A stretch of 64,000 nucleotides of DNA from Podarcis liolepis (Eukaryota). Within the stretch, counting starts at the first letter, position 1, and the number at the start of each line of letters is the position of its first letter. Position numbers and translations under genes: made by a program. The stretch lies in assembly GCA_965112155.1 (NCBI GenBank), contig OZ218107.1, one strand, 5' to 3'. The notes under the pieces are model-generated. The model was not told the DNA's origin and ran no database searches. It saw only the letters and a program-made list of their open reading frames with translations. Positions 7,331 to 60,419 of the stretch are shown piece by piece.

Positions 7331-7940
7331 ATCACAATGTGATTATACATATTTGTAGAGTGACCACAACTCCCCATTTAAAAGGGGGGCAGAGGGTCTT
7401 GGCTTGTACCAAGGTGGGTGCCTGGGGGCAATGTGATACTTTCAGGTGTCACACTGGGGACCCCAGCCTATATCTTACAGCTGCTGTCCATACCTCTTTG
7501 AGAGGATACAGTAATAGCACCACCTCCCAAAATTTCAGTTCCATATGGGGTACCTATGATATTCCTTCATGTTATGAGGGCCCAGATCAGGTAAGGCCTT
7601 AAAAGCTGAAACCAGAAATTTGAGTTTGTGGTTGGAAACAAACCAGTAATCAATCCTAGTAAGTGTAGCATAATTCTTATGGCCAGCAATAGTCTGCTAC
7701 ATTCTGGATCAACTTCTGAAAAAAAATCTAAAGCAGCTTTATAGACAGCACACTGCAGTAGTTCAGTGGTAGAAGTTACAAAAGCACGTGCTACAACAGT
7801 TATTAACAATAATTTCCTAACCTAATTTAATTAGTTTGCTATTGTTCTAAAAGGGTGCTTTTCAACAAAGCCTCTTTGGAATAGCTTACCATAGTAGAAA
7901 AGAATGAAACAGCTAGCAACATTGCGATAAACAAAATCAT

Positions 7941-8060
7941 GTATCTGATAAAGTAAGCTCTAGTCCGTGAAAGCACATGCCATAATAAAATGTGTTGGTC
8001 TTTAAGATGCCACAAGGCCCTGTTAATTTTGCTGTAACAGACTAACATGGCTCCTACCTG
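7941..8060 (+). mobile_element. Degenerate Penelope-like terminal repeat with a decayed hammerhead core
   Basis: GTATCTGATAAAG...GAAAGCACATGCCATAATAAA...GGTCTTTAAGATGCCAC...CAGACTAACATGGCTCCTACC is collinear with the younger copies at 39058 and 58480. Confidence 0.65.
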
Positions 8061-8339
8061 TCTGGTAACAATAAACCCAAGTAAGCAGCAAGGGGGGGGA
8101 AATATGACAGTCACTAAAATAATAGATCAGATTGCAGCAGCAATTCAATTAAAAGCCTTGGTAAAAAGGAAATTGAGCTGAATCAAGGTAGAAGTAACTG
8201 CCATATTTATGTCTAGAGAGACTATTCAAATACAAAGCACCATCACTGAATAGAGGCTCTCACTAAAAGAGTTGAGGGCACCTGGAAAAGGGTGTTGGAA
8301 GGTGGGCTGGGGCATATAAGAAAAGATGGTTCTTCTTAA

Positions 8340-25470: not shown

Positions 25471-28171
25471 CTGATTTTTTTATGCTTCCCTTCTTCTTTT
25501 CCCCTTCAATTGGTGCTTATTTTAAACTGGGGAAAGAAGATGGTATGCTTTTGCAAAACAAAAAACTACGGCGATCAATTTGATGTATAGTAACATACCA
25601 TTATGTGTGTTTTTGAAACATGCGTATTTTGGGCTGTAATGAAGATGATCAATGTCCATTTTGCTGTGACACTATATTCGCTTCTACTTGTGCTATGGAA
25701 ACTTTTCTTCATATCTAGGTGGGATGCTGTCTGCATATTTGATCTGGACAGCACTTGATCCTCAAAAGAACCTCCAGAGTCCAGAATACTGCCCAGGGTT
25801 TAACTATCGGAACAGAAGTGTCAAGACACCATTCCACAATTCAGTGGGTTGGCATGCAAGGCGACCTGAGGAATTTGTGGTGATTGCAGGCAAATTATAA
25901 GCATGGCAGTCTGCTCTGACACCAGCAGTTCTAATTTAATTAGATGAGTGCTGTGAAGACTGAGCCTCCCTCTATAAATGAGTGCCATCCAGGGGCAGCA
26001 ATTTGGTGGTCCGATTTTGGTCATGCCCACAAGCTTAGATGGAGAAATAGTTAGCTACACATACAGTGTTTTGTGTAGTTAACATTTAACTACTGTAGAT
26101 GCATCTTTGTTTCTGCTGAAGCGGATGGTCCTGAGAGTTTGAGGAAGGTTTTGCATTATTAAGTACTATAGAATTCCTGTCAGTTTGGTGCTTATCTGAG
26201 CTACTACATACAAGGTCTTCTAAATGTTTCTCCGCCTGTTATAGCCCTTTCTGGATTGGCTTAGTTTCAAAGTCAGGCTCTAGCCTTAGCCCTGACAAAC
26301 TCTATTTTAGAACAGTAAATACACAGGGCAATGCAGGCTGGATGGAAAGTACAGTGAAAGAAGTAAAATTTAATACATATTATCACAGATGATAAAACTC
26401 CAGGGTAATGTACAATTATTTGTGTTGCAAAAATACAATAAAAGTGGCTCTTAGAAAATTGTTGTAGGTAATAACGTTGCCAGAGGCTTTAGTTTTAGGA
26501 TGAACTCTGCATCTACAGTCCTATGAGTATTTAGAGTGTTTCCTGTCTGGGTGAAGGTGCAAAGTTGCAATGCGCTCAGTGTGATAAATTTGAAATTGTA
26601 GTTCTTCAGTAGATTTTGGAGATACAAAATTCCATTTTTAAATTGCAATTGTTGATGACACATCACCAGCTACAGCTTTTATTTTAATCTTCTATGAATT
26701 TTCATAATCATTGCGTTTTTGTACTGTCACTCTATGCATCATTCTTTGTCTCCTTGTTAGGTTGTTTTAAATTTATTAGCTTAAATCCTTTTCCCACAAG
26801 CATGCTCACACACATACATATATCGCACACATACATGTAAAATGAAATTGCTTTCCAGTTCTTGAGCCAAATGCTCATTCAAAACTGATGAATTAGAACT
26901 AACACTCACTTACAGCATTTATAACAGATGCTTGCAAACAAAATATTAAGTATAATGAAATCCAGCCAGGATTTTATAAAAACAGTGAGCAGATTTCTGC
27001 GTAAGAATTGAAGCGCAGAGTAAAATGACAGAGAAACACAGTGTCCCTAAAGCCATATAGCAGCTCCACAGTTCAGTGGATTGAAAAAGATCCCTCTTAA
27101 TTTTAGGATAGAAATTACATCAAGTTTCTATAGACTGACTTGCCTCATCCTTTCTTTTAAAAAAAGGGGGTGAGTTAATCTGACACTCAGTGCATTCTTC
27201 GGTAGCGAACTTGCAGTGCCTTTACAGGAAATAAGAGCTTACAGCTCTGCAAATCAGTGGAGGTGTACTGCCATTAAAAGATACTTTGGGTCTAAATCTT
27301 ATTAAAACAGAAAATTCTCATATCTATCTGGTATGCAGATGGGTCTAGCTTTCACAACATGCAGCTTGTCATGTTTTATTTGTAATCTGCAATGATAAAC
27401 ACTATCCCAGAATTTAAAATGTTGTGTCCTGTAGTTAGGCAGAATGAGGTTACTATCTCTTAGGCAGAAAAGGGTGAAGAAGTAGGAAGGTGATTACTAA
27501 ATGTGAAGTTCTTTCTTGGGGGAAAACCTAAGCAAAGCCAGAAGCCCACTCCCTGTCTCCAGTGTGCACCTCTGACTGACTTCAGCTCTCTTCTTGCCAT
27601 GCAGAAATATAAAGTGCATTTTCCTTCTCTTCTGCAATAATGTCAGGAATGCAACTTCCCTACCTCAGAAATGCATATGCTTCCACCATAGACATCATCT
27701 TGGTCTACAAGCCATTTGACCATACCAAGACTGTTCTTTTCTAATTTTATTTCCTTCAACTATTAGCCCCCACAAGTATGGCCAATGGGCAGGGATGATG
27801 GGAGCTGTAGTTTAGCAACAGCTGGAGGGCCAGAAGGTCCTTTCACCTAGGCTGCAAGCTTGGAAATCTTGAAATTATTCTGCAATGCCTCATCCATGAC
27901 AGCAACACTCAGAGAAGCCATCATTAAAAGAAAAAAGGCAAACCTACATTGGAGATTGAACTATAGGTGGTTTCTGTAGCAATAACTTCAAATGTTAAAA
28001 ATATATGAAACAGGCTTTTCCCTAACCATCCAGCCTGCCTTAATTCTCGTGCTTTTGCTAGTTACCATGAGCAAAATAACCACAGCTTCTAATCTTGAAT
28101 TCTCATTGTGTACAAGAATGCAAAATCCATAATAGGGATATCATAAATTCTCATATGTATGAAAATTATTG

Positions 28172-28292
28172 ATAGGTAGCCGTGTTGGTCTGCCATAGTC
28201 AAAATAAAAAAATTCCTTCCAGTAGCACCTTAAAGACCAACTAAGTTAGTTCTTGGTATGAGCTTTCGTGTGCATGGAAGGAATTTTTTTAT
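28172..28292 (-). mobile_element. Truncated Penelope-like terminal insertion with a short inverted tail and 14-bp TSD
   Basis: Nearly identical to 58486-58589; flanked by TATGAAAATTATTG at 28158-28171 and 28293-28306. Confidence 0.85.
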
Positions 28293-30608
28293 TATGAAAA
28301 TTATTGTACACCTGGGCTGCAGAGCAGGAGTACCACCTCCACCTGGTTTTCAAGGACTCCTTCAACCTTAACTATACCTACTCACGTGGGAATCTGTTTG
28401 ACATGCAGAGCTGCCATTTTTTAACTTGTTGCAGTTTTCTTGTGATGGGGGGGTGTACATGTAACAAGAGGCATTCTTTGTATCAGGTTCTTAAAAGGTG
28501 AATGAGCAAGGGCAGTACAAAGATGGCAACAGTAGACAATCATGGTCATCACTTCAAAAGTTACCTCTGATTGTTGGTACAAAAAAAATCAGAATGCACT
28601 CATTCCTTCTGATAATAGAAGCTTGACATGCAGGAAATAACACAGGAACCTAGGAAGGTGCCTTAAACAGGGTCAGACCATTGTAGCATGAGTTCCAGGT
28701 GGGGTCCTCTCCCAGCCCTATCAGTAGATGTTGGGGATTGAAACTGCCTGCATACAAAATGAATGCTCCAATTGAGCTCTGATTCTTCCTAAAGAGCACA
28801 AGACAGGGCAGGTTTTTTTCTTTCACTGGGTCTGTTGATGATTGTAGGACTACAGTACAAAGTTATGACTGACCTGCTCAAGCTATGATACAATTGAGAT
28901 ACTTGGAGACAAAAGAGAGAATAGGATAAACAAACAAACAAACAAACAAAACAATGCTTAGTGGCCCTTAGGGGGGGAAATACCCTAATTTGGATTTAGG
29001 AATAACAGAGTACAAAACTGTGAAACTCACATTTTACAAGCTTTGCATTATATGCTCACTTATTTAAAAGTTAACCCTACTAATTGCATTGGGATCATTA
29101 AACATAACGGGGTGATTACATGTTACTTTCAGTGAGTGTATAATCTCTGTAAATAGCTGGGCGGCATGAATCAACGCAAACACTTGTACCTGTGTAGACA
29201 GACAACTTGTACCTGTGTTTAGAGTACTATGAATAACCTTAATGGGATCAAGTTTCAAAGGCATTCATTTATTGCAAACTTGCATTATAGCCAATGAGAC
29301 CACTTAGCTGAAGAACCAGCTGTGTTTTGAACTTTAATGCTGCTTGGCAGAGCAATACTGTGCATGTCTTCTCAGTCATAAACTAAATGGGACCGGCAGG
29401 GAAGTATATATATGATTGTAGTCTTTGTGGATTACCTTGGAACTAATGGGGATTAAAACAAGGCAAGTAATGTGTAGCCAGAAATATATCATTTGGTTAC
29501 GGTAATTTATATCCATGCATTTTGCATAATTTAAGCTGCAATCCCATACACATTTATTTACCTGCAACTGAACTTGGTGAGGCTTCTAAATTGACAAATT
29601 TAGGATTGTACTATTCTCACTGTTGCAGCTAGTAAAGTGGAGGGCCTGTCTTTTTTTATTTCATTTCATTTTCCCAAATCGGAACTGAAATAGTATTAAC
29701 AAATGAAAATGTCCCTTTAAACTTGAATTGAGTGCCTCAGCCTCCCTCCTGTGAAAGGAACTGTTTTGTACCCCTCATTAGATGGGAGTGGAAGGGCACA
29801 AACAGCTTTCAGACAAAGGTGAGTTCCAGCATCTTTTATTTAGAAATTAATTATGGAATAATTAAATTAAGGCACATTTATTGGAACACATCCATTCAGT
29901 GCCAAAAATCAAAACCTTACATGCCAGGAAACACACTTCTCAAAACCAAGGATTGCTTTCAGCTTGGTTCTATTCAGAGCAGACTTGCTGAAATTGGTTA
30001 ATATTGTTAATGTAGGTGCATTGATTTTAATGTCTTAAGTAGAAGCTGGAAACAACCTCAAGTCCCTTTCCTCCTATAAAACCCAAAAAGCTAATTATTT
30101 TAGCTCTATAGACAAAATATAGGAGTTTAAGAGAAAGCCCACCACATCTTAGCAGTGGAACCTATTTTCAACTCAATGGCTCAACCTCAGATATTTGAAG
30201 GGGGAAAAACAAAAAGTTAGACCATATGCACCAGAAAATAATTACAACCATCTCCACATATCTAAAATTAGGAATAATGTCTTCCAGATTTTGACACATC
30301 AGTCGATGTGACAGGCAAACCATTTTGAGACCCCACATTACATATTTTATAAATCCACTGACAAAATGGACCCTAAAACAGGATCACCGGCATTGCTAAG
30401 CAAGCTAAAAAGTCTACCTTGCTTGCCATCACTGCAAAAAAGAGTATGTTGAATCACTCCCTACTTGTATTTCCCAACCAGTGGGTCAGAAAACCTGTGG
30501 CATCTACACATCAGAGGCAAATTGTAATACTCAAAACAACAACTTGTATGAGCACCTTATGGTGAACCATCATCAGATCTACCACCAGAGTTGACTAATA
30601 GTTTAGCC

Positions 30609-31857: not shown

Positions 31858-32083
31858 CAGTGGTACCTCGGGTTAAGTATTTAATTCGTTCCGGAGGTCC
31901 GTACTTAACCTGAAACTGTTCTTAACCTGAAGCACCACTTTAGCTAATGGGGCCTCCTGCTGCTGCTGCACCGCCGGAGCCCGATTTCTGTTCTCATCCT
32001 GAAGCAAAGTTCTTAACCTGAAGCACTATTTCTGGGTTAGCGGAGTCTGTAACCTGAAGCGTATGTAACCCAAGGTACCACTG
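31858..32083. mobile_element. Tc1/mariner-type MITE
   Basis: TA|CAGTGGTACCTCGGGTTA...TAACCCAAGGTACCACTG|TA; same family as 58443-58883, opposite orientation. Confidence 0.92.
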
Positions 32084-35460: not shown

Positions 35461-36371
35461 TTTCTCCACTGCCCTTCTTGCTGGACCCCTGTGTGCAACG
35501 AAAGGCACTTTTCTTTAGCCCTAAACGGTATCAAATAAGCTTCCTTGAAAGTTAACTCGCTTGTCTTTTTCTCTCTTTTACTTTCAAAGACAGTTGCTCC
35601 TAGTCTAGATAGATAGATAGATGGATAGATATGGATATTGGAAGCAATTCATTGAATACTTGTTACTTCCTCAATCAAAAGGTGGTTTTTGTAATGCTAT
35701 GTCTATTTTTTTTACAAATCAGATTATATATAGTGTATTATATGAGTCGATACACAAGTGTATTTTAGGTTATAGAGGTTCTTTTTTCTAGGCGTTTTAT
35801 ATTTTCTTTATTGGTTATAATTATAAATAATAATAAATATAGGTTTTCCTTTAGGGAAAATATTTTTTTTGATGGGAGCCTTAATGTTACTTAAATATAC
35901 TGTTATTTACCTTTTTAGAAAACCAACATGTGGGACAAAGCTCACTCCCTCCCCAAAATGCATTTTACTCCTTCTGTGCTCTCCTCAGTATGCCTTGTTT
36001 CCAGTATCAATGCTATATTTACTTTGTATTGCTGCCCTTGACAAAAAATAAAAATAGACTGAAATTTTTGAGTGTTGAAAGTGTTGCCCCCCCCCACTGA
36101 ATCCATGTGACTGATGCTCCCAACTATATTATTATGTGAATGATCCTGCACACATGTAAGTTTCCTTTAAGTATTGAAAGATGTATGTGGGACAGCGCTA
36201 GCATATTGGCTAATTACCGTACCTCCTGGCTTTGCTTTGTGTGCAATTCGCTGCTTCTTGCTTATCAAACAGCTTATTAAATTTGTAACTGGCTGCTATT
36301 AAAACTAAATGACAGGTTTCAAAGTGAACAGTTAAATATCAGTAGAATAAGAGTAACATCCAGCTGCTGTT

Positions 36372-36489
36372 TACAGGTAGGTAGCCGTGTTTGTCTGCCG
36401 TAGTCGAAACAAAACAAAAAAAATTCCTTCCAGTAGCACCTTAGAGACCAACTAAGTTTGTTATTGGTATGAGCTTTCGTGTGCATGCA
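36372..36489 (-). mobile_element. Truncated Penelope-like terminal fragment in L3MBTL2 intron 1
   Basis: Reverse complement of 36421-36489 matches 39073-39141 with 3 mismatches in 69 nt; possible TSD CATCCAGCT (36357 and 36488). Confidence 0.85.
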
Positions 36490-38431
36490 TCCAGCTATTG
36501 ATATTTGTTTGAGCACCATCAGTATGGTTCAGGAGTCACCAGTTTTGTGCCCATGGCTGGAGCGGGATAGGTCTTCCTTGGCCCCATCCTTCTGCTGAAA
36601 TTACTGTAGTCAGTAGAATTAGTTTTGGTGTGTGCTTTGTTGCATGTTGCCCATTGACAGTTTCTCCAGATTGGGCCCAAAGGTTGGTGAGTTCACTAGT
36701 CCGCAATCCTGTGCAAATTTAAGAGCAAGTTCCCCTGAATACAGTGGGGCAACTTACAATTTAAATGTATTTTAGGATCTGATCACACAATAGATGGTAA
36801 TAAGGATTGGATTTGCTAATGCAACATTGATTGGAAGATGCTAATTGGTTAGGAGTGTAGAACTGGAGATTCTTGGGATTAAAGGAATGCTTTGTGGAAG
36901 AGGGTGGAGCTCAGACAGGAAATGGAATTTGATATTTATGGTGTGGTGGTTCCAGCTGTAGGGCGCATTATGGCTGGATGAGTAGTCGTAGGCAAAGAAC
37001 TTCATGAACTCAGTAGTGATTTGGTGGCTTGCTGGGTAAATGGACTTAATCAATACAGCATATTGCTTGATCCCTCACAACAAATATGCAAAAAATAATA
37101 ATACATGTCCTTCCTGTTGAATAACTACTTAGTCTATAATAGCTATTTGCTGGGGTTTTATATTCAAAAGCTGTAGCTTAGATTATTTTTTTATTCTCCC
37201 ATAAACATGCATTGAACATTAGGTGGGAAATGTCCTGATGGTTATACTTGCAAAAAGTGGTTAAAATTAGACTAGTCTGCTTGAAGTAATCTCTACTGGA
37301 TGTGGCCAGATTTTTTTCACCCCAAATTGTAGTGGGCTACTATGGGTATCTGCTGCCTGCTTGACATTGCAATCTTCTTGAATTAGAAAGAAAAGCCAAG
37401 GTGGTAGGATGTTTGACTGCACTGGCTTCCTCAGTATGTTGCTAAACGCACAAAGGTACTTAACAACTCTTTCTTCTTCACTGTTTACCTCATGTCTTTA
37501 CAGAGCTGGGCTATAGTCATGGCCACTTACCCCCAAAGTCTTCTTAACTCACTTGTTTGCTTTGCTGGGGTTCTCCACATACATTTCTGCCTACAGTGTC
37601 CTAACATTGCTTGAAACCAGCAAGTAGGAGGGGGAACTAGATGTACAGTTATCTCTCTCTCTCTCTTTTTGCCAACTGTGTTTAACATCCTGTCTGCTTT
37701 GCCCCTAAATTTCCGATGTGTAGAAGGATTGCACAAGTCAGTGGGTTTAAAAGCGTGTTCTGGCCCTCCAGGCAATTCTGGCAATCCTGAAAGGTAACAT
37801 GTCTGCACTTATGGATTATCTCATATAATGCACTCCCAGTAACAGGAGAGAGGCAGGTGCAGGGCATGTTTCATGTGGTCAGTTGAGTCAGGGTGACGTC
37901 TAGGCCCAGTGGACCAGGGTATAGCTTCAAATGGACTTGAGACAAGCTATTGAGAATTCCCCAGAATCCTCTGCAATATGCAGAAATTCCACAGCAGATG
38001 CTCAGGAGTTCCCTGGAGAAGGTGCATCAACATAGACAGTGTTCCCTGAAAGAAAAAAAAAATGGAAAATGCTAGCAAAGATTGAAGTTATGAAACGTCA
38101 AAGAAGACTGAAATGATATACAGTTATATCACCCCCCCCATTATTCTAGCTTGATTTTGTGTACTCCTTAGGATGTACATCAGTTTTACTTTTTCTTCTT
38201 CTTTTTGTGCAATTGCCCACTACTACCACATCACTGTTTTCTGATTGTGCCTATTGTAATTTATGTGGTGCTCACTAAAGACCTCAAAAAGTCAATCCTA
38301 TTCTGACCTTGGAAAAAAGCAATAAAAAATTATTATAAAAAAAAACAAAAAACAAAAAGTCAATCCTAAAATTTTGAGAGTTATCATGACTTCAGGATTA
38401 AACATTTTAAAGCACAGGATAAATGAACAGA

Positions 38432-39147
38432 GAAATTCCTTTGTAGTAAAACACCTACTTTGAGATCTTGTATAGAATGTCCTGGGAGATTGAAGTGTTC
38501 TCCTACTGGTTTCTCTATTTTGTGATTCTTGATGTCAGATTTATGTCCGTTTATTCTTTGGCGTAAGGTTTGGCCTGTTTGTCCAATATAGAGAGCTGAA
38601 GGACACTGTTGGCATTTGATGGCATACACAATACTATACTAGCTACTATGGACGTGGAATCTCTGTATACCAACATCCCACACAACGATGGTTTACAAGC
38701 TATAAGGAACACCATTTCAGATAAAACCACAGCAGACCTTGCCACCAAACTCTGCAAAGGAATTTCAGAAATAGACTGGAAAGAGAAGCTGCTGAATTGC
38801 AACTCATTACCAAACTTAAAACCATGGAGAGACCTGGTCTGAACAGAGACATTGGATTCTTATCTCATTATACATGACTAAGCCATTTCTCACCTTCTCA
38901 CCCCTTGCCTTTTCCTGTAAGACCTATTACAGTCGTTAAGAGTCGTCAACAGGCTCATCTCAGCTATCTGCCAATCTCCCATTCCCACCACCCTTCTGAG
39001 TAATACCCCTCCCCACCTTCTCACTATATAGAAGGATCTGGCAACTTCTGTTTCAGTGTATCTGAAGAAGTGTGCATGCACACGAAAGCTCATACCAAGA
39101 ACTAACTTAGTTGGTCTTTAAGGTGCTACTGGAAGGAATTTTTTTAT
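38432..39147 (+). mobile_element. Rearranged Penelope-like retroelement: inverted GIY-YIG N-part, RT fragment, GIY-YIG C-part and terminal repeat
   Basis: Minus 38432-38632 VYAIKCQQCPSALYIGQTGQTLRQRINGHKSDI...VGEHFNLPGHS; plus 38628-38755 ILATMDVESLYTNIPH (PLE RT motif); plus 38755-38877 QRNFRNRLEREAAELQLITKLKTMERPGLNRDIGFLSHYT*. Confidence 0.93.
39058..39095 (+). ncRNA. Minimal type I hammerhead ribozyme motif (Penelope-associated)
   Basis: GUAU-CUGAAGA-A-GUGUG(CAUG)CACAC-GAAA-GC-UC^AUAC: stem I GUAU/AUAC, complete core, 5-bp stem II, palindromic AGCU stem III, predicted cut after 39091. Confidence 0.8.
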
Positions 39148-39402
39148 TTAAATTGTTCTAGTTTGTTGTTGTTAGCTGCTTGGCTTAAAGGAAACAACAC
39201 AGTATTTTAAATGAATATGTAATATTTTAAGGGGAGCATATTGAGGGAGTATGGGACCTCGTCATTAGTGGAAGTACCGACACTTCCTTGGCTAATAGCC
39301 TGCTCAAATGATGCTGCCTCTGATATATGTGAACTGAGTGCCTCTTTCCCACCAATCATGCCTGTGGGTGTTTCAAATATACTCGGTCTGTTTTGCTGTT
39401 AG

Positions 39403-45842: not shown

Positions 45843-46226
45843 CAGTGGTTTCCCAACCTTTTTGGTATGGCAACTCACAAGCCCAAATTTACCTGGCATG
45901 GTAGGTGACCCATTGATTTATTGTCAAATGAATTTTGGACCTCAGGTCTTCGGCAGCCATCAGTTTCATGCATTTTAACTGCATGTTTGCCTATTTTATT
46001 ACCACTGCTTAAGACAGGCATAGGCAAACTCGGCCCTCCAGATGTTTTAAGACTACAATTCCCATCATTCCTGACCACTGGTCCTGTTAGCTACGGATGA
46101 TGGGAGTTGTAATCCCAAAACATCTGGAGGGCCGAGTTTGCCTGTGCCTGGCTTAAGACATCCCAGAAAAAATAATAAAGCCTGTGACTCACTTGCAGGT
46201 CATAACCCACAGTTTGAGAAGCATTC
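45843..46226. mobile_element. Older hAT MITE interrupted by a younger MITE
   Basis: Starts CAGTGGTTTCCCAACC, ends CAGTTTGAGAAGCATTC; 7/8 TSD match AGCTAGAG / TGCTAGAG. Confidence 0.6.
46015..46150. mobile_element. 136-bp near-palindromic hAT MITE
   Basis: CAGGCATAGGCAAACTCGGCCCTCCAGATGTTTT with the inverted copy at the other end; perfect 8-bp TSD GCTTAAGA. Confidence 0.92.
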
Positions 46227-49118: not shown

Positions 49119-49842
49119 ACATTATAGAAAGGGATCTTTGGCCAGACGGGATTTTTCTTCATAATCTGTGCCTCTGAATAGTGAGATGGCGGATTGAGGA
49201 AGAGCTTTTGCAGTTTTAGCTTCCACATTTAAACAGGCAAACAGGCACGAACCAGTGATACAGGGTTGGAATCACTAAGCAGTGTTGATTAGTCTCTTCA
49301 GAATGTTCATTGTGAGAGGGTAATTAGTGTTATACTTCATTATGCCTTCTTCTCCCTCCCCCTTTTACAAGGCTGCCTTGGCTAGAGATGGTATATTAGG
49401 CTGTTAGGGGCAAGGAGACTTCCTTTTTGGGGGAGACCCAGTGAGTTACCGCTTCTAGGTGATATCAAGGTGGCAATTATTTGCACCTGTGTTTCTACTG
49501 CAGTCTGTTGGATCTGCTTTGAATAAATATGGGTAGGATCAGGCAGAAGGTCATTGTTTAATAATAATTCTTTTCATATATTTTTTCCCTCTAGAGCTTT
49601 TTTAAAGTTCAGAGTACTTCTCATATATTATCTCAGTAATCTTTACAACAAATAATACCGAATGTTAGCCATGTTCAGAGGAGAGCCACTGAAAACAATG
49701 GACTTAGGTCCATTTGTTTCAGTAGGTCCACTCTGGGTATGAGTTAGTTGGGTATTCCCCCCCAGTCACATTGTATTTTTATTATTAAATGATTTTATTA
49801 ATTTTCAAGAAGCCAGTAGCATTGTAAAGTAGGTCAGTTATA

Positions 49843-50080
49843 CAGTGGTACCTCTGGATACGAACGGGATCCGTTCTGGAGCCCCGTTTGCATCCTGAAG
49901 TAAACGCAACCCGGGTCTGTACGTGTGGGTCACGATTTGTCGCTTCTGCGCATGACGTCATTTTGACCGTCTGCGCGAGCAGCGAAACCCGGAAGTAACA
50001 CGTTCCATTACTTCCGGGTCACCACGGAGCGCAACCCAAAAGCGCTCAACCTGAAGCAACTTCAACCCGAGGTGTGACTG
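49843..50080. mobile_element. Tc1/mariner (Tigger-like) MITE with CpG-rich interior
   Basis: TA|CAGTGGTACCTC...GAGGTGTGACTG|TA; internal TGACGTCA and an inverted CCCGGAAGTAA / TTACTTCCGGG pair. Confidence 0.8.
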
Positions 50081-57813: not shown

Positions 57814-58094
57814 TTGTTGCTGTGGAGGTGAAAGAAGAAATTCTTGACGATTCAGCAATGGAACTTGAAGCCCCACTGCTACCAGTCCCAATCAGCTGCT
57901 TAAAGGATGAAGATATGGACACAGAATCCCCACTGAGTCCTATGCCGGGCGGCCGCTTAAAGGATAAGGAGATTGAACCAGAAGCTCCAGCAAGCTCTGT
58001 GTTGCTCAGCTGCTTAAAGGATGAAGTCATGGAACCAGAAGCTCCAGCAAGCCCAGTATTGATCAGTTGCTTGAAGGATGAAGATGTAGACTAA
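57814..58094 (+). CDS. L3MBTL2: L3MBTL2 terminal exon 17 coding part
   Basis: tgcag|TT GTT GCT GTG GAG GTG AAA GAA GAA; IVAVEVKEE resembles human IIAVRVKEE; stop TAA at 58092-58094. Confidence 0.9.
57858..58085 (+). repeat. Coding tandem repeat, 4 x 57 nt (19 aa)
   Basis: MELEAPLLPVPISCLKDED / MDTESPLSPMPGGRLKDKE / IEPEAPASSVLLSCLKDEV / MEPEAPASPVLISCLKDED. Confidence 0.92.
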
Positions 58095-58479
58095 AGCTTC
58101 ATGAGACAAAGTGACTTGATGTTCTTTTGCCACAGTCCTTGAAGAAATCAGGAAAATGCTGGCCTCATTTGCGGGGGCATGGACCACAGTTAATAAAGCT
58201 GTAGTTTTTTCATAGTTGATGGATCACCTCAAAATAAAAAAGGAAAAGCTCTCAAAACAAATTCCACTTAATTATGTAAAAAGGCAAGCCCACTATTCCT
58301 TTCTGACTGGCATGGCAGGAGCCAAGGATAAACTTCTCCATCTCTGTAGGGAGGTGCTTCCAAGTCATTCTAAACTTGCATCAATTGAGCCAGAATCTAG
58401 ATAAGTGCCAATCCAGTAGAGAACCACATCCATTACATGGTACAGTGGTACCTCAGGTTACAGACACTTCAGGTTACAG

Positions 58480-58689
58480 TAGTAGATAGGTAGCCGTGTT
58501 GGTCTGCCATAGTCAAAATAAAAAATTCCTTCCAGTAGCACCTTAAAGACCAACTAAGTTAGTTCTTGGTATGAGCTTTCGTGTGCATGCACACTTCTTC
58601 AGATAGTGTGCATGCACACGAAAGCTCATACCAAGAACTAACTTAGTTGGTCTTTAAGGTGCTACTGGAAGGAATTTTTTATTTTGACT
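58480..58689. mobile_element. Fold-back Penelope terminus: perfect 85-bp inverted repeat, 9-nt spacer, 14-bp TSD
   Basis: Arms 58511-58595 and 58605-58689 are exact reverse complements; TSD ACTTCAGGTTACAG at 58466-58479 and 58687-58700. Confidence 0.93.
58569..58605 (-). ncRNA. Second minimal hammerhead motif (minus strand, stem I shortened to 3 bp)
   Basis: Minus strand reads UAU-CUGAAGA-A-GUGUGCAUGCACAC-GAAAGCUC^AUAC. Confidence 0.6.
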
Positions 58690-60358
58690 TCAGGTTACAG
58701 ACTCCGCTAACCCAGAAATAGTACCTTGGGTTAAGAACTTTGCTTCAGGATGAGAACAGAAATTGAGTGGTGCGGCAGCAGCGGGAGGCCCCATTAGCTA
58801 AAGTGGTGCTTCAGGTTAAGAACAGTTTTAGGTTAAGAACAGACCTCCAGAACGAATTAAGTTCTTAACCTGAGGTACTACTGTATTGGGAACTGCTCTC
58901 CCAAATTATCTCTGTCTTCCTCTGTGCTGCATTGTTTCTTCCTGCCATTTTGCCATTTTGGCCACAGAGTCTAAGAAGGCACAGGACACATGAAATTACA
59001 TGTGAGCCCAATGCACTTTGGAGCATCACATTTTCCTCTGTGAGGAGTAGGAGTATGCACTTGCCCCCCCCCCTTTGTACTATGAACAGAATGAATCAAT
59101 TCTTTGACAATAATGAGAGGAGAAAAATGTATTGCAACCCTTTCTGTAAATAAAACTTCATGTGTTTATTTTGCCCTTTTGTTGAATAAACTCAGTCAGA
59201 ATACCTTGTGTTTGGAGTCTTTTCTGGTCTTCTCTGGTCAAGAAAATAGGGGTACCAAGGGCATACAGAAGCAACTTGTGCATGGTTTGCTGGTTCTAAA
59301 GTACATCTGTCTGCAAGGGGGATTGTTTTGCCTTTTGTCTTCTCAGACAGGTCATAACCACAACACCAAAAGTATAATCCTTTTTCACTTTTATAATACT
59401 ATATATTAGAGAAAGTGTTTCCAAACCAGAACACGCAAATCTTTTTAGACATATGCACTATAGACATGTGCTAGGAACATAATGCATGGAATGACATTTA
59501 GTTTTCCTTTTCTGACTCAACTCCTCTTTCTCTGCTGCCATTGCCCCCAAATTGTGTTTCTTCCATCCTTCCCCTTTCCTATTTGCATTTATTCCCAAAC
59601 TACCTAAAGTGTGACAGCTGGAATCTAAAGGGATTGGAATGTGCTATTATGGCATGTTGCATTTCTAAAGCAGGGTGGGTAGACTTACGGCTTGTCGGTT
59701 GTGCTGAGCCTTTTTCTTTCTGTTAGCTAGAACTCAAAAGACCTAACAACCATAGCCAGGTGCAAATGACAGATAGGAAGAATTAAAGAATAAGGTCCCT
59801 TTGAGCACATTTTGAGACTAGGAATGTGACCAGAACTGGGCTGAGCTCTTTACAGAAGCTTAATTTAGGTAGAAAAATTCATTTTGTTGTTGCCATTGTT
59901 AAACAATTGGGAGTCAGAATTCCATGTCAGTCTTCTGCAAATCAGCCAGAGATCTGTCTGTGGATTCTGATCTAACTTTTGCATTGCCCTAATGTAAACC
60001 ATCTTTATCAAGCATCCTTGTCACTCTTCTGACTGGACATTTTGATGGGCCCCAAAGTCAGCGTGTTTCTCCCACCTTGGCCAGAAATGAAAGAAGGCTG
60101 TTGGGTGGGGACTTGAAATAGTCCAGAAGTGTGGACCATCCCTGTCGGCCTCCTCATTCCCAAGCTTCTGGTGAGGTGGTTTTTCATTTCTTTCCACAAC
60201 AATAAATGTGTAGACTGTACGGGAAGAGTCCTGATCTAAGCGTATGTTTTTGTACAGACTCTACCCATCTTCTACCAACTTTCTCCTTGCAGAAAGTAAG
60301 TCTGTGCTTTTTAACATCAGGAATGAAAGTAAATCTCATTTTTATAAATGTAAAAAAG

Positions 60359-60419
60359 AATAAAAGTAAATCTACACACGCTAGAGCTGTAACTGAAGTG
60401 TTTATATTTTAGCTTTATT
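60359..60419. terminator. Facing poly(A) signals: AATAAA on + (60359-60364) and on - (TTTATT 60414-60419)
   Basis: Hexamers read directly in an AT-rich patch between convergent L3MBTL2 and CHADL; other + signals at 58192, 58233, 59149, 59185 and 60201. Confidence 0.45.

Follow-up and report, generated by a model that had tools for sequence, protein, structure and literature searches.

A perfect 85-bp hairpin behind the L3MBTL2 stop codon of the lizard Podarcis liolepis as a head-to-head Penelope-like insertion

Results

Gene context and anatomy of the insert

The 64,000-nt stretch of Podarcis liolepis contig OZ218107.1 (assembly GCA_965112155.1) that we analysed, referred to below as the window, carries in this order a p300-like gene (bromodomain, ZZ, TAZ), which we take to be EP300, L3MBTL2 on the plus strand, and a chondroadherin-like gene on the minus strand, presumably CHADL by human synteny. 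The identity of L3MBTL2, proposed in a first-pass annotation of the sequence, was supported by its last exon, which is 93-96% identical to Podarcis L3MBTL2 (best of 17 matches among 2134 candidates). The C-terminal residues are the same in 8/8 squamate proteins inspected from those 17 matches, and the TAA at 58092-58094 is therefore the L3MBTL2 stop, 417 nt ahead of the left arm of the hairpin. Exons encoding an FCS zinc finger and MBT lie further upstream, and Pfam returned no family for the last exon of either L3MBTL2 or the chondroadherin-like gene. Within the last L3MBTL2 exon, residues encoded by 57850-58091 form imperfect repeats of ~22 residues that are also seen in other squamate orthologues.

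The two arms of the hairpin (Table 1) are exact reverse complements of 85 nt each around a 9-nt loop, an arrangement with a chance expectation of ~1e-44; the next-longest perfect inverted repeat with a loop of up to 50 nt in the whole 64-kb window is 14 bp. The insert is flanked by a 14-nt direct repeat, the first 3 nt of whose right copy are also the end of the arm, and it includes a 31-nt tail that lies beyond the palindrome on one arm only. Arms, loop and duplication were thus recovered exactly as first described.

Table 1. Features of the hairpin locus and related elements in the window (strand: +, plus; -, minus;., unstranded).
Feature	Position	Strand	Basis or remark
L3MBTL2 last coding exon to stop TAA	57814-58094	+	identity to Podarcis L3MBTL2, same C-terminus
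Two proximal AATAAA (58192, 58233), weak downstream context	58192-58238	+	
MITE hosting the PLE insertion and split by it; 226-nt type with TA flanks and terminal inverted repeats of 18 nt	58443-58883	.	
Target-site duplication, left copy, 14 nt	58466-58479	+	
PLE 'tail', 31-nt 3' extension on one arm	58480-58510	-	common to copies at 28172-28196, 36366-36402
Left arm, PLE pLTR 3' end, sense on minus	58511-58595	-	identity to 39059-39149
AATAAA brought by the left arm	58517-58522	+	mirror at 58678-58683, minus
Minimal hammerhead motif with 3 bp left in stem I	58570-58605	-	descriptor match
9-nt loop, native PLE sequence with hammerhead core	58596-58604	.	
Right arm, PLE pLTR 3' end lacking both tail and hammerhead core, sense on plus	58605-58689	+	identity to 39069-39149
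Target-site duplication, right copy, 14 nt	58687-58700	+	
Top candidates for L3MBTL2 poly(A) signals (59149, 59185)	59149-59190	+	
Facing AATAAA at 60359 (+) and 60419 (-)	60359-60419	.	latter a possible end signal of the chondroadherin-like gene
Sister MITE without an insert, standing for the empty site	31858-32083	-	
Second head-to-head insertion: tailed arm, 17-nt tail-less arm, 14-nt duplication	28158-28306	.	
Simple copy without inverted arm, tailed and 5'-truncated, with a 9-nt duplication	36357-36496	-	
Longer PLE copy: inverted GIY-YIG, RT piece, ORF end and 3' pLTR whose minimal hammerhead (39058-39095) is intact	38432-39149	+	

The insert interrupts a MITE whose terminal repeats match at 17/18 positions. 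This element has the features of its class, namely a TA duplication, short terminal inverted repeats, no ORF and dispersed copies, and we provisionally assign it to Tc1/mariner from the TA flanks, by convention. Its sister copy holds the duplicated segment once (13/14 nt match) and is collinear with it on both sides of the insert, which bears out the order of events given in the first-pass annotation, a Penelope-like element (PLE) landing in an older MITE. The two MITE copies differ by 4+17 mismatches and a 6-nt indel (~91% identity, against 99% among the PLE copies); judged by this comparison, the PLE insertion is recent and the MITE older. Two further small inverted-repeat elements were seen in the window, one at 45990-46160 with 61-nt arms that are 90% complementary, and one at 49841-50030 with a terminal repeat related to that of the host MITE.

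A Penelope-like family with a hammerhead motif

The hairpin arms match three other young PLE copies in the window. Against the longest of these (38432-39149), the left arm plus loop is identical at 90/91 positions (39059-39149) and the right arm at 80/81 (39069-39149); in that copy the 3' end represented in the hairpin is contiguous with an ORF end, a reverse transcriptase (RT) piece and an inverted GIY-YIG piece. The Penelope origin that had been claimed for the arms is therefore confirmed through this 99%-identical relative, in which RT and GIY-YIG occur as fragments; the hairpin insert itself is without them. The GIY-YIG piece scored 26.9 bits in Pfam (cutoff 22.6), and no Pfam family was returned for the RT piece or the ORF end. 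The ~40 aa of RT available in the window are 71-76% identical to turtle proteins, the pieces together align at 58-68-71% with the turtle RT+GIY-YIG protein P0048, and overall the GIY-YIG and RT pieces reach 58-76% with turtle proteins and 80-91% with lacertid records. Among 71 candidates, 64 were homologues of the GIY-YIG piece, nearly all of them turtle or lizard records and many with both RT and GIY-YIG. As a separate observation, several Zootoca gene models (P0003-P0007, P0009, P0010, P0012, P0013) join a PF00619 (CARD) domain to a stretch 85-91% identical to the family's GIY-YIG region, reflecting either mis-annotation or exonisation.

RT and GIY-YIG, a hammerhead motif in the pLTR, a 31-nt tail and a truncated inverted copy with a target duplication were all found, and by these sequence features we class the family as an endonuclease-positive (EN+) PLE. 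A full-length copy in the tandem pLTR-ORF-pLTR order is absent from the window. It is probably of the Neptune type, because the turtle homologue P0048 has a zinc-finger linker between RT and EN. The likeness to Neptune-type elements of turtles and lacertids lies in the GIY-YIG and RT identities and in a hammerhead layout like that of the Chrysemys motif (PMC4209133 supplement), whereas the defining linker is seen in P0048 and its region is missing from the fragment in the window.

The hammerhead was located with a minimal descriptor, which gave two matches on both strands of the window, at 39062 (+) and 58602 (-). Stem I has 4 bp in the native motif at 39062 and 3 bp at 58602 (PLE type, 4-5 bp). 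By-eye comparison with PMC4209133 showed the conserved core, an extra base before stem II, G10.1-C11.1 and the palindromic 15.2/16.2 positions; the supplement of that paper gives a Chrysemys hammerhead with a 4-bp stem I, the same core, a 5-bp stem II and GC at 15.2/16.2. Rfam gave no matches in the window at gathering thresholds, and at E values up to 10 no hammerhead family appeared among 24 and 2 matches, the native hammerhead being missed as well; folding in isolation gave no hammerhead structure either. The motif call therefore rests on the descriptor and the published comparison. In the Rfam microRNA search the gathering threshold was not reached, the best match being to mir-559 (61.6 versus 95 bits) and driven by structure.

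Both outer ends of the insert are native 3' ends of the PLE family, one with the 31-nt tail and the other without, and towards the centre each arm is 5'-truncated at the hammerhead, the two meeting at 58605 with 1-nt microhomology. On these alignments, the insert reads as two 5'-truncated PLE 3' ends joined head to head, one of them tailed. Three of the four young copies in the window carry an inversion, and two of the four are head-to-head with 14-nt duplications. Since the second of these, at 28158-28306 (2-nt microhomology at its junction), is built in the same way, the hairpin shape is routine for the family.

The longer copy, which sits in the L3MBTL2 upstream region or an early intron, is arranged differently: a stretch of 12 nt is shared, at the same position, by its inverted GIY-YIG piece and its sense ORF end, which is a twin-priming pattern, and a 120-nt RT piece from far upstream lies between the two. 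A search for its target-site duplication found none, the best candidates being 6-mers, and no convincing duplication was found for an old copy near 7940-8065. The latter (7939-8065, plus strand) is an old relative of the PLE end, ~72% identical, with a decayed hammerhead.

This anatomy agrees with published PLE insertions, described as an inverted 5'-truncated copy with one end bearing a tail of 30-40 bp (PMC8557442) or as head-to-head arrangements with a 31-bp tail, junction palindromes and 8-10 bp duplications (PMC3846280); PMC8969392 is also cited for it. Like the head-to-head PLEs of Adineta (Pen2a), Drosophila (Penelope) and the Naiads, the insert combines an inverted 5'-truncated copy, a 31-nt tail on one arm, a short duplication and a junction palindrome (PMC3846280, PMC8557442); it differs in lacking an ORF and in the shortness of its arms, which reduces the entire insert to a 179-nt hairpin and the tail. 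By every feature testable the hairpin is an ordinary head-to-head PLE insertion. Searches of open-access PMC and bioRxiv for papers describing the locus, the structure of Penelope in lacertids or twin priming in PLEs came back empty.

How the insert may have arisen

The ends of the young copies fall at recurrent sites. The three tailed PLE ends have the tail in common, and the three tail-less ends (28293, 39149 and the right arm) lie within ~8 nt of each other. Of the five short arms, four break off between element positions 39059 and 39075, a segment occupied by the hammerhead core and stem II, beyond the cleavage site at 39091; the fifth maps at 39130. In window coordinates, the truncation points 28276, 36489, 58605 and 58606 place 4/5 short arms within 17 nt, at the core and the 14-nt palindromic stem II. 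This cluster suggests that the hammerhead acts as a strong stop for reverse transcription; more speculatively, the stem II palindrome might dimerise the RNA.

In the sequence of events that we consider to have about an even chance of being correct, a staggered cut at the target, the step read directly from the 14-nt duplication, would have been followed by priming of reverse transcription from both target strands, one at the start site of the tail and the other at an inner start site, on RNA that the hammerhead had left uncleaved. Both cDNAs would then have stalled at stem II and been end-joined over 1-2 nt of microhomology. We favour this course because of the shared end sites, the clustered truncations and the two start sites of the anole enzyme. 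That enzyme, from the Poseidon element of Anolis carolinensis (PAc), is described as cutting and extending both strands with uncleaved RNA as template, and as having two start sites that bound the tail (PMC11167929); these data were obtained in vitro on an element of a different clade from the hairpin family, one whose hammerhead overlaps the ORF start (PMC11167929).

A tentative but substantial possibility is fold-back self-priming, in which the first cDNA would have folded on itself and copied 85 nt, its end being set by endonuclease resolution or by 3-nt target microhomology. It fits the junctions about as well as two-end priming does: the loop can form 2+1 pairs (a 3-bp mini-hairpin), a 6-A run is present in both arms and two other young copies have 7, palindromes at inverted junctions are read as self-priming in PMC3846280, and the tail is ascribed to EN resolution in PMC8557442. 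It accounts less readily for the fact that both second arms in the window end at the tail boundary, which is also the primary end of the long copy. A fold-back stopping at random would hit this boundary twice with a chance of ~8/116 x 8/51, or ~1% (a post hoc figure from run lengths, n=2), and fold-back requires a site-specific step just as two-end priming does. L1-type twin priming, the pattern of which fits 38432-39149, was rejected for the hairpin because its two arms are identical in sequence. Our preferred account remains priming from both ends of the target.

Polyadenylation signals around the hairpin

The six AATAAA hexamers on which the first-pass annotation based its proposal of alternative polyadenylation (58192, 58233, 59149, 59185, 60201 and 60359) are all present, and others had been overlooked, at 58517 in the left arm, 60970 and 62093. 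We scored their context by a crude count of downstream U/GU motifs (window median 3, 90th percentile 6.1, n=150 hexamers). The proximal sites at 58192 and 58233 scored 0 and 1, the weakest context of the nine plus-strand sites scored, with only 62093 as low. Beyond the hairpin, the counts were 10 at 59149, which also has 2 upstream UGUA, 2 at 59185, 6 at 60201 and 7 at 60359. The last of these faces a minus-strand AATAAA at 60419 (9 motifs), each lying within the other's U-rich downstream region (50% and 52% U, respectively), and L3MBTL2 and the convergent chondroadherin-like gene may share an end at 60359-60419.

Signals thus exist on both sides of the hairpin, as proposed, but their context leans towards its inclusion rather than its exclusion. 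Since the downstream signals have the stronger context, we think it quite likely that L3MBTL2 mRNAs ending at 59149 or later exist and carry the hairpin in their 3' UTR.

That the hairpin never reaches mature mRNA, with transcripts ending at 58192/58233 or at 58517 in the left arm before the right arm is made, seems unlikely to us, although three canonical hexamers do precede the right arm. Of these, the proximal two have the poor context noted above, while 58517 has 5 downstream motifs (75th percentile) and would stay single-stranded until ~160 more nt had been transcribed; at equilibrium it is predicted to be fully paired (unpaired probability 0.00). Use of 58517 would yield a hairpin-free isoform.

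Predicted folding and possible fates of the duplex

An earlier statement that the arms would form stable dsRNA if transcribed was upheld by prediction: in a 1081-nt candidate UTR, 85/85 pairs formed with probability >0.9. The predicted stability of the hairpin is -104 kcal/mol, and that of the MITE region -241 kcal/mol (z -21.6; 0/100 shuffles as good). The stem includes 53 adenosines, and an 85-bp duplex with that content is a suitable substrate for ADAR and PKR.

Given inclusion in the mRNA, transcripts ending at 59149 or later would fold the 85-bp duplex, which would most likely be A-to-I edited and bound by dsRNA proteins, and which perhaps slightly lowers the output of the long isoform. 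Parsimony makes a young neutral passenger in the 3' UTR the most likely status of the duplex, and the locus as a whole is likely to represent a recent Neptune-like PLE insertion in an older MITE behind the L3MBTL2 stop, without evolved function.

A regulatory role had also been suggested, in which Dicer would process long-UTR L3MBTL2 mRNA into siRNAs silencing the PLE family, with alternative polyadenylation as the gate. We regard this as improbable. The duplex is perfect and 98-100% identical to young copies, the distal poly(A) signals are the stronger ones, and rearranged Penelope copies in Drosophila have siRNAs that map to their inverted regions (PMC3681739); however, according to the same source, those siRNAs failed to silence Penelope efficiently. 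The duplex here is moreover internal, with no free end, and mammalian somatic Dicer is described as inefficient on long dsRNA, mouse Dicer turning it into siRNA poorly outside oocytes (PMC6391682). Many similar hairpins must, we infer, exist genome-wide, so the one behind L3MBTL2 need not be special.

The siRNA-trigger model is an already known concept. Inverted Alus form a duplex of ~300 bp (the Alu length) that is imperfect and takes two insertions, whereas the perfect 85 bp here come from one. They resemble the present case in placing a transposon duplex between poly(A) sites of a 3' UTR, so that alternative polyadenylation gates it, and such gated Alus lower gene output (10.1101/2023.11.30.569399). 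The Drosophila Penelope siRNA sources are likewise rearranged copies whose inverted arms can pair into dsRNA (PMC3681739); the lizard locus differs in having a vertebrate host and a siRNA output that is hypothetical, and its promoter would be that of a host gene. A search of open-access PMC and bioRxiv found no paper on reptile endo-siRNAs.

The broadest version of this idea, to which we attach a still lower probability, is a form of self-vaccination: an active lizard PLE would routinely make 3'-end hairpins, one of which, landing in a host 3' UTR, would give poly(A)-gated siRNAs matching every young copy, with the imported AATAAA serving as a kinetic isoform switch.

At the DNA level the hairpin had been put forward as a potential fragile site. 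The hairpin is stable by prediction, but for much longer Alu arms in yeast a spacer of 9 bp, just past the threshold for fork arrest, lowered breaks by 80% and left forks without pausing (PMC8053094). Because the yeast arms are longer and the loop here is partly self-complementary, modest instability by analogy is possible.

The hammerhead motif on the minus strand

The claim that the loop and left arm encode a hammerhead on the minus strand held for the motif itself, whose core, stem II and cleavage triplet are intact, with the refinements that stem I is down to 3 bp and that the motif is recognised by the descriptor and not by Rfam. Forcing the ribozyme fold costs a predicted 45.6 kcal/mol relative to the hairpin. 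Modelled in this way, the hammerhead is probably an inert relic, because it lies on the strand that is not the mRNA, its stem I is shortened and the hairpin out-competes its fold. A comparison with retrozymes was set aside, as the preprint consulted (10.64898/2026.07.22.740005) concerns tandem units and the insert is not tandem.

An active ribozyme that cuts RNA made antisense or by read-through from the chondroadherin-like gene, which does lie downstream in convergent orientation and would transcribe the strand with the intact core, is very improbable, since stem I has only 3 bp, the favoured hairpin would have its opposite arm transcribed first, single minimal motifs showed no cleavage in vitro in the material of PMC4209133 (which notes opposite-strand motif pairs), and the strong minus-strand signal at 60419 would end the convergent gene ~1.7 kb earlier. 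Equally hard to credit is an assembly artefact by read fold-back: perfect palindromes are a known failure mode, noted for PLEs too (PMC8557442), but fold-back of a read would yield neither the 14-nt duplication, nor the one-sided tail, nor a native family end, and the MITE resumes in register with its sister beyond the insert, a second copy in the window is built to the same design, and the window contains no N.

Discussion

Read as a recent PLE insertion, the hairpin bears on how the family inserts. The four young copies suggest that second arms end where an inner start site lies and that the hammerhead stalls reverse transcription. Counted across the genome, such ends could test in vivo the two-start-site model, which so far comes from in vitro work in another clade.

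The hairpin would also serve as a natural reporter of how reptile cells handle a perfect 85-bp duplex in an mRNA, through editing, retention, PKR or Dicer; since its loop junction is locus-specific, reads could be assigned to it. Should siRNA output and repression of the family prove true, the locus would be a compact case of a transposon making its own silencer via a host gene. Self-vaccination, if true, would amount to a one-step trap outside piRNA clusters, in a vertebrate lineage whose endogenous RNAi has hardly been examined.
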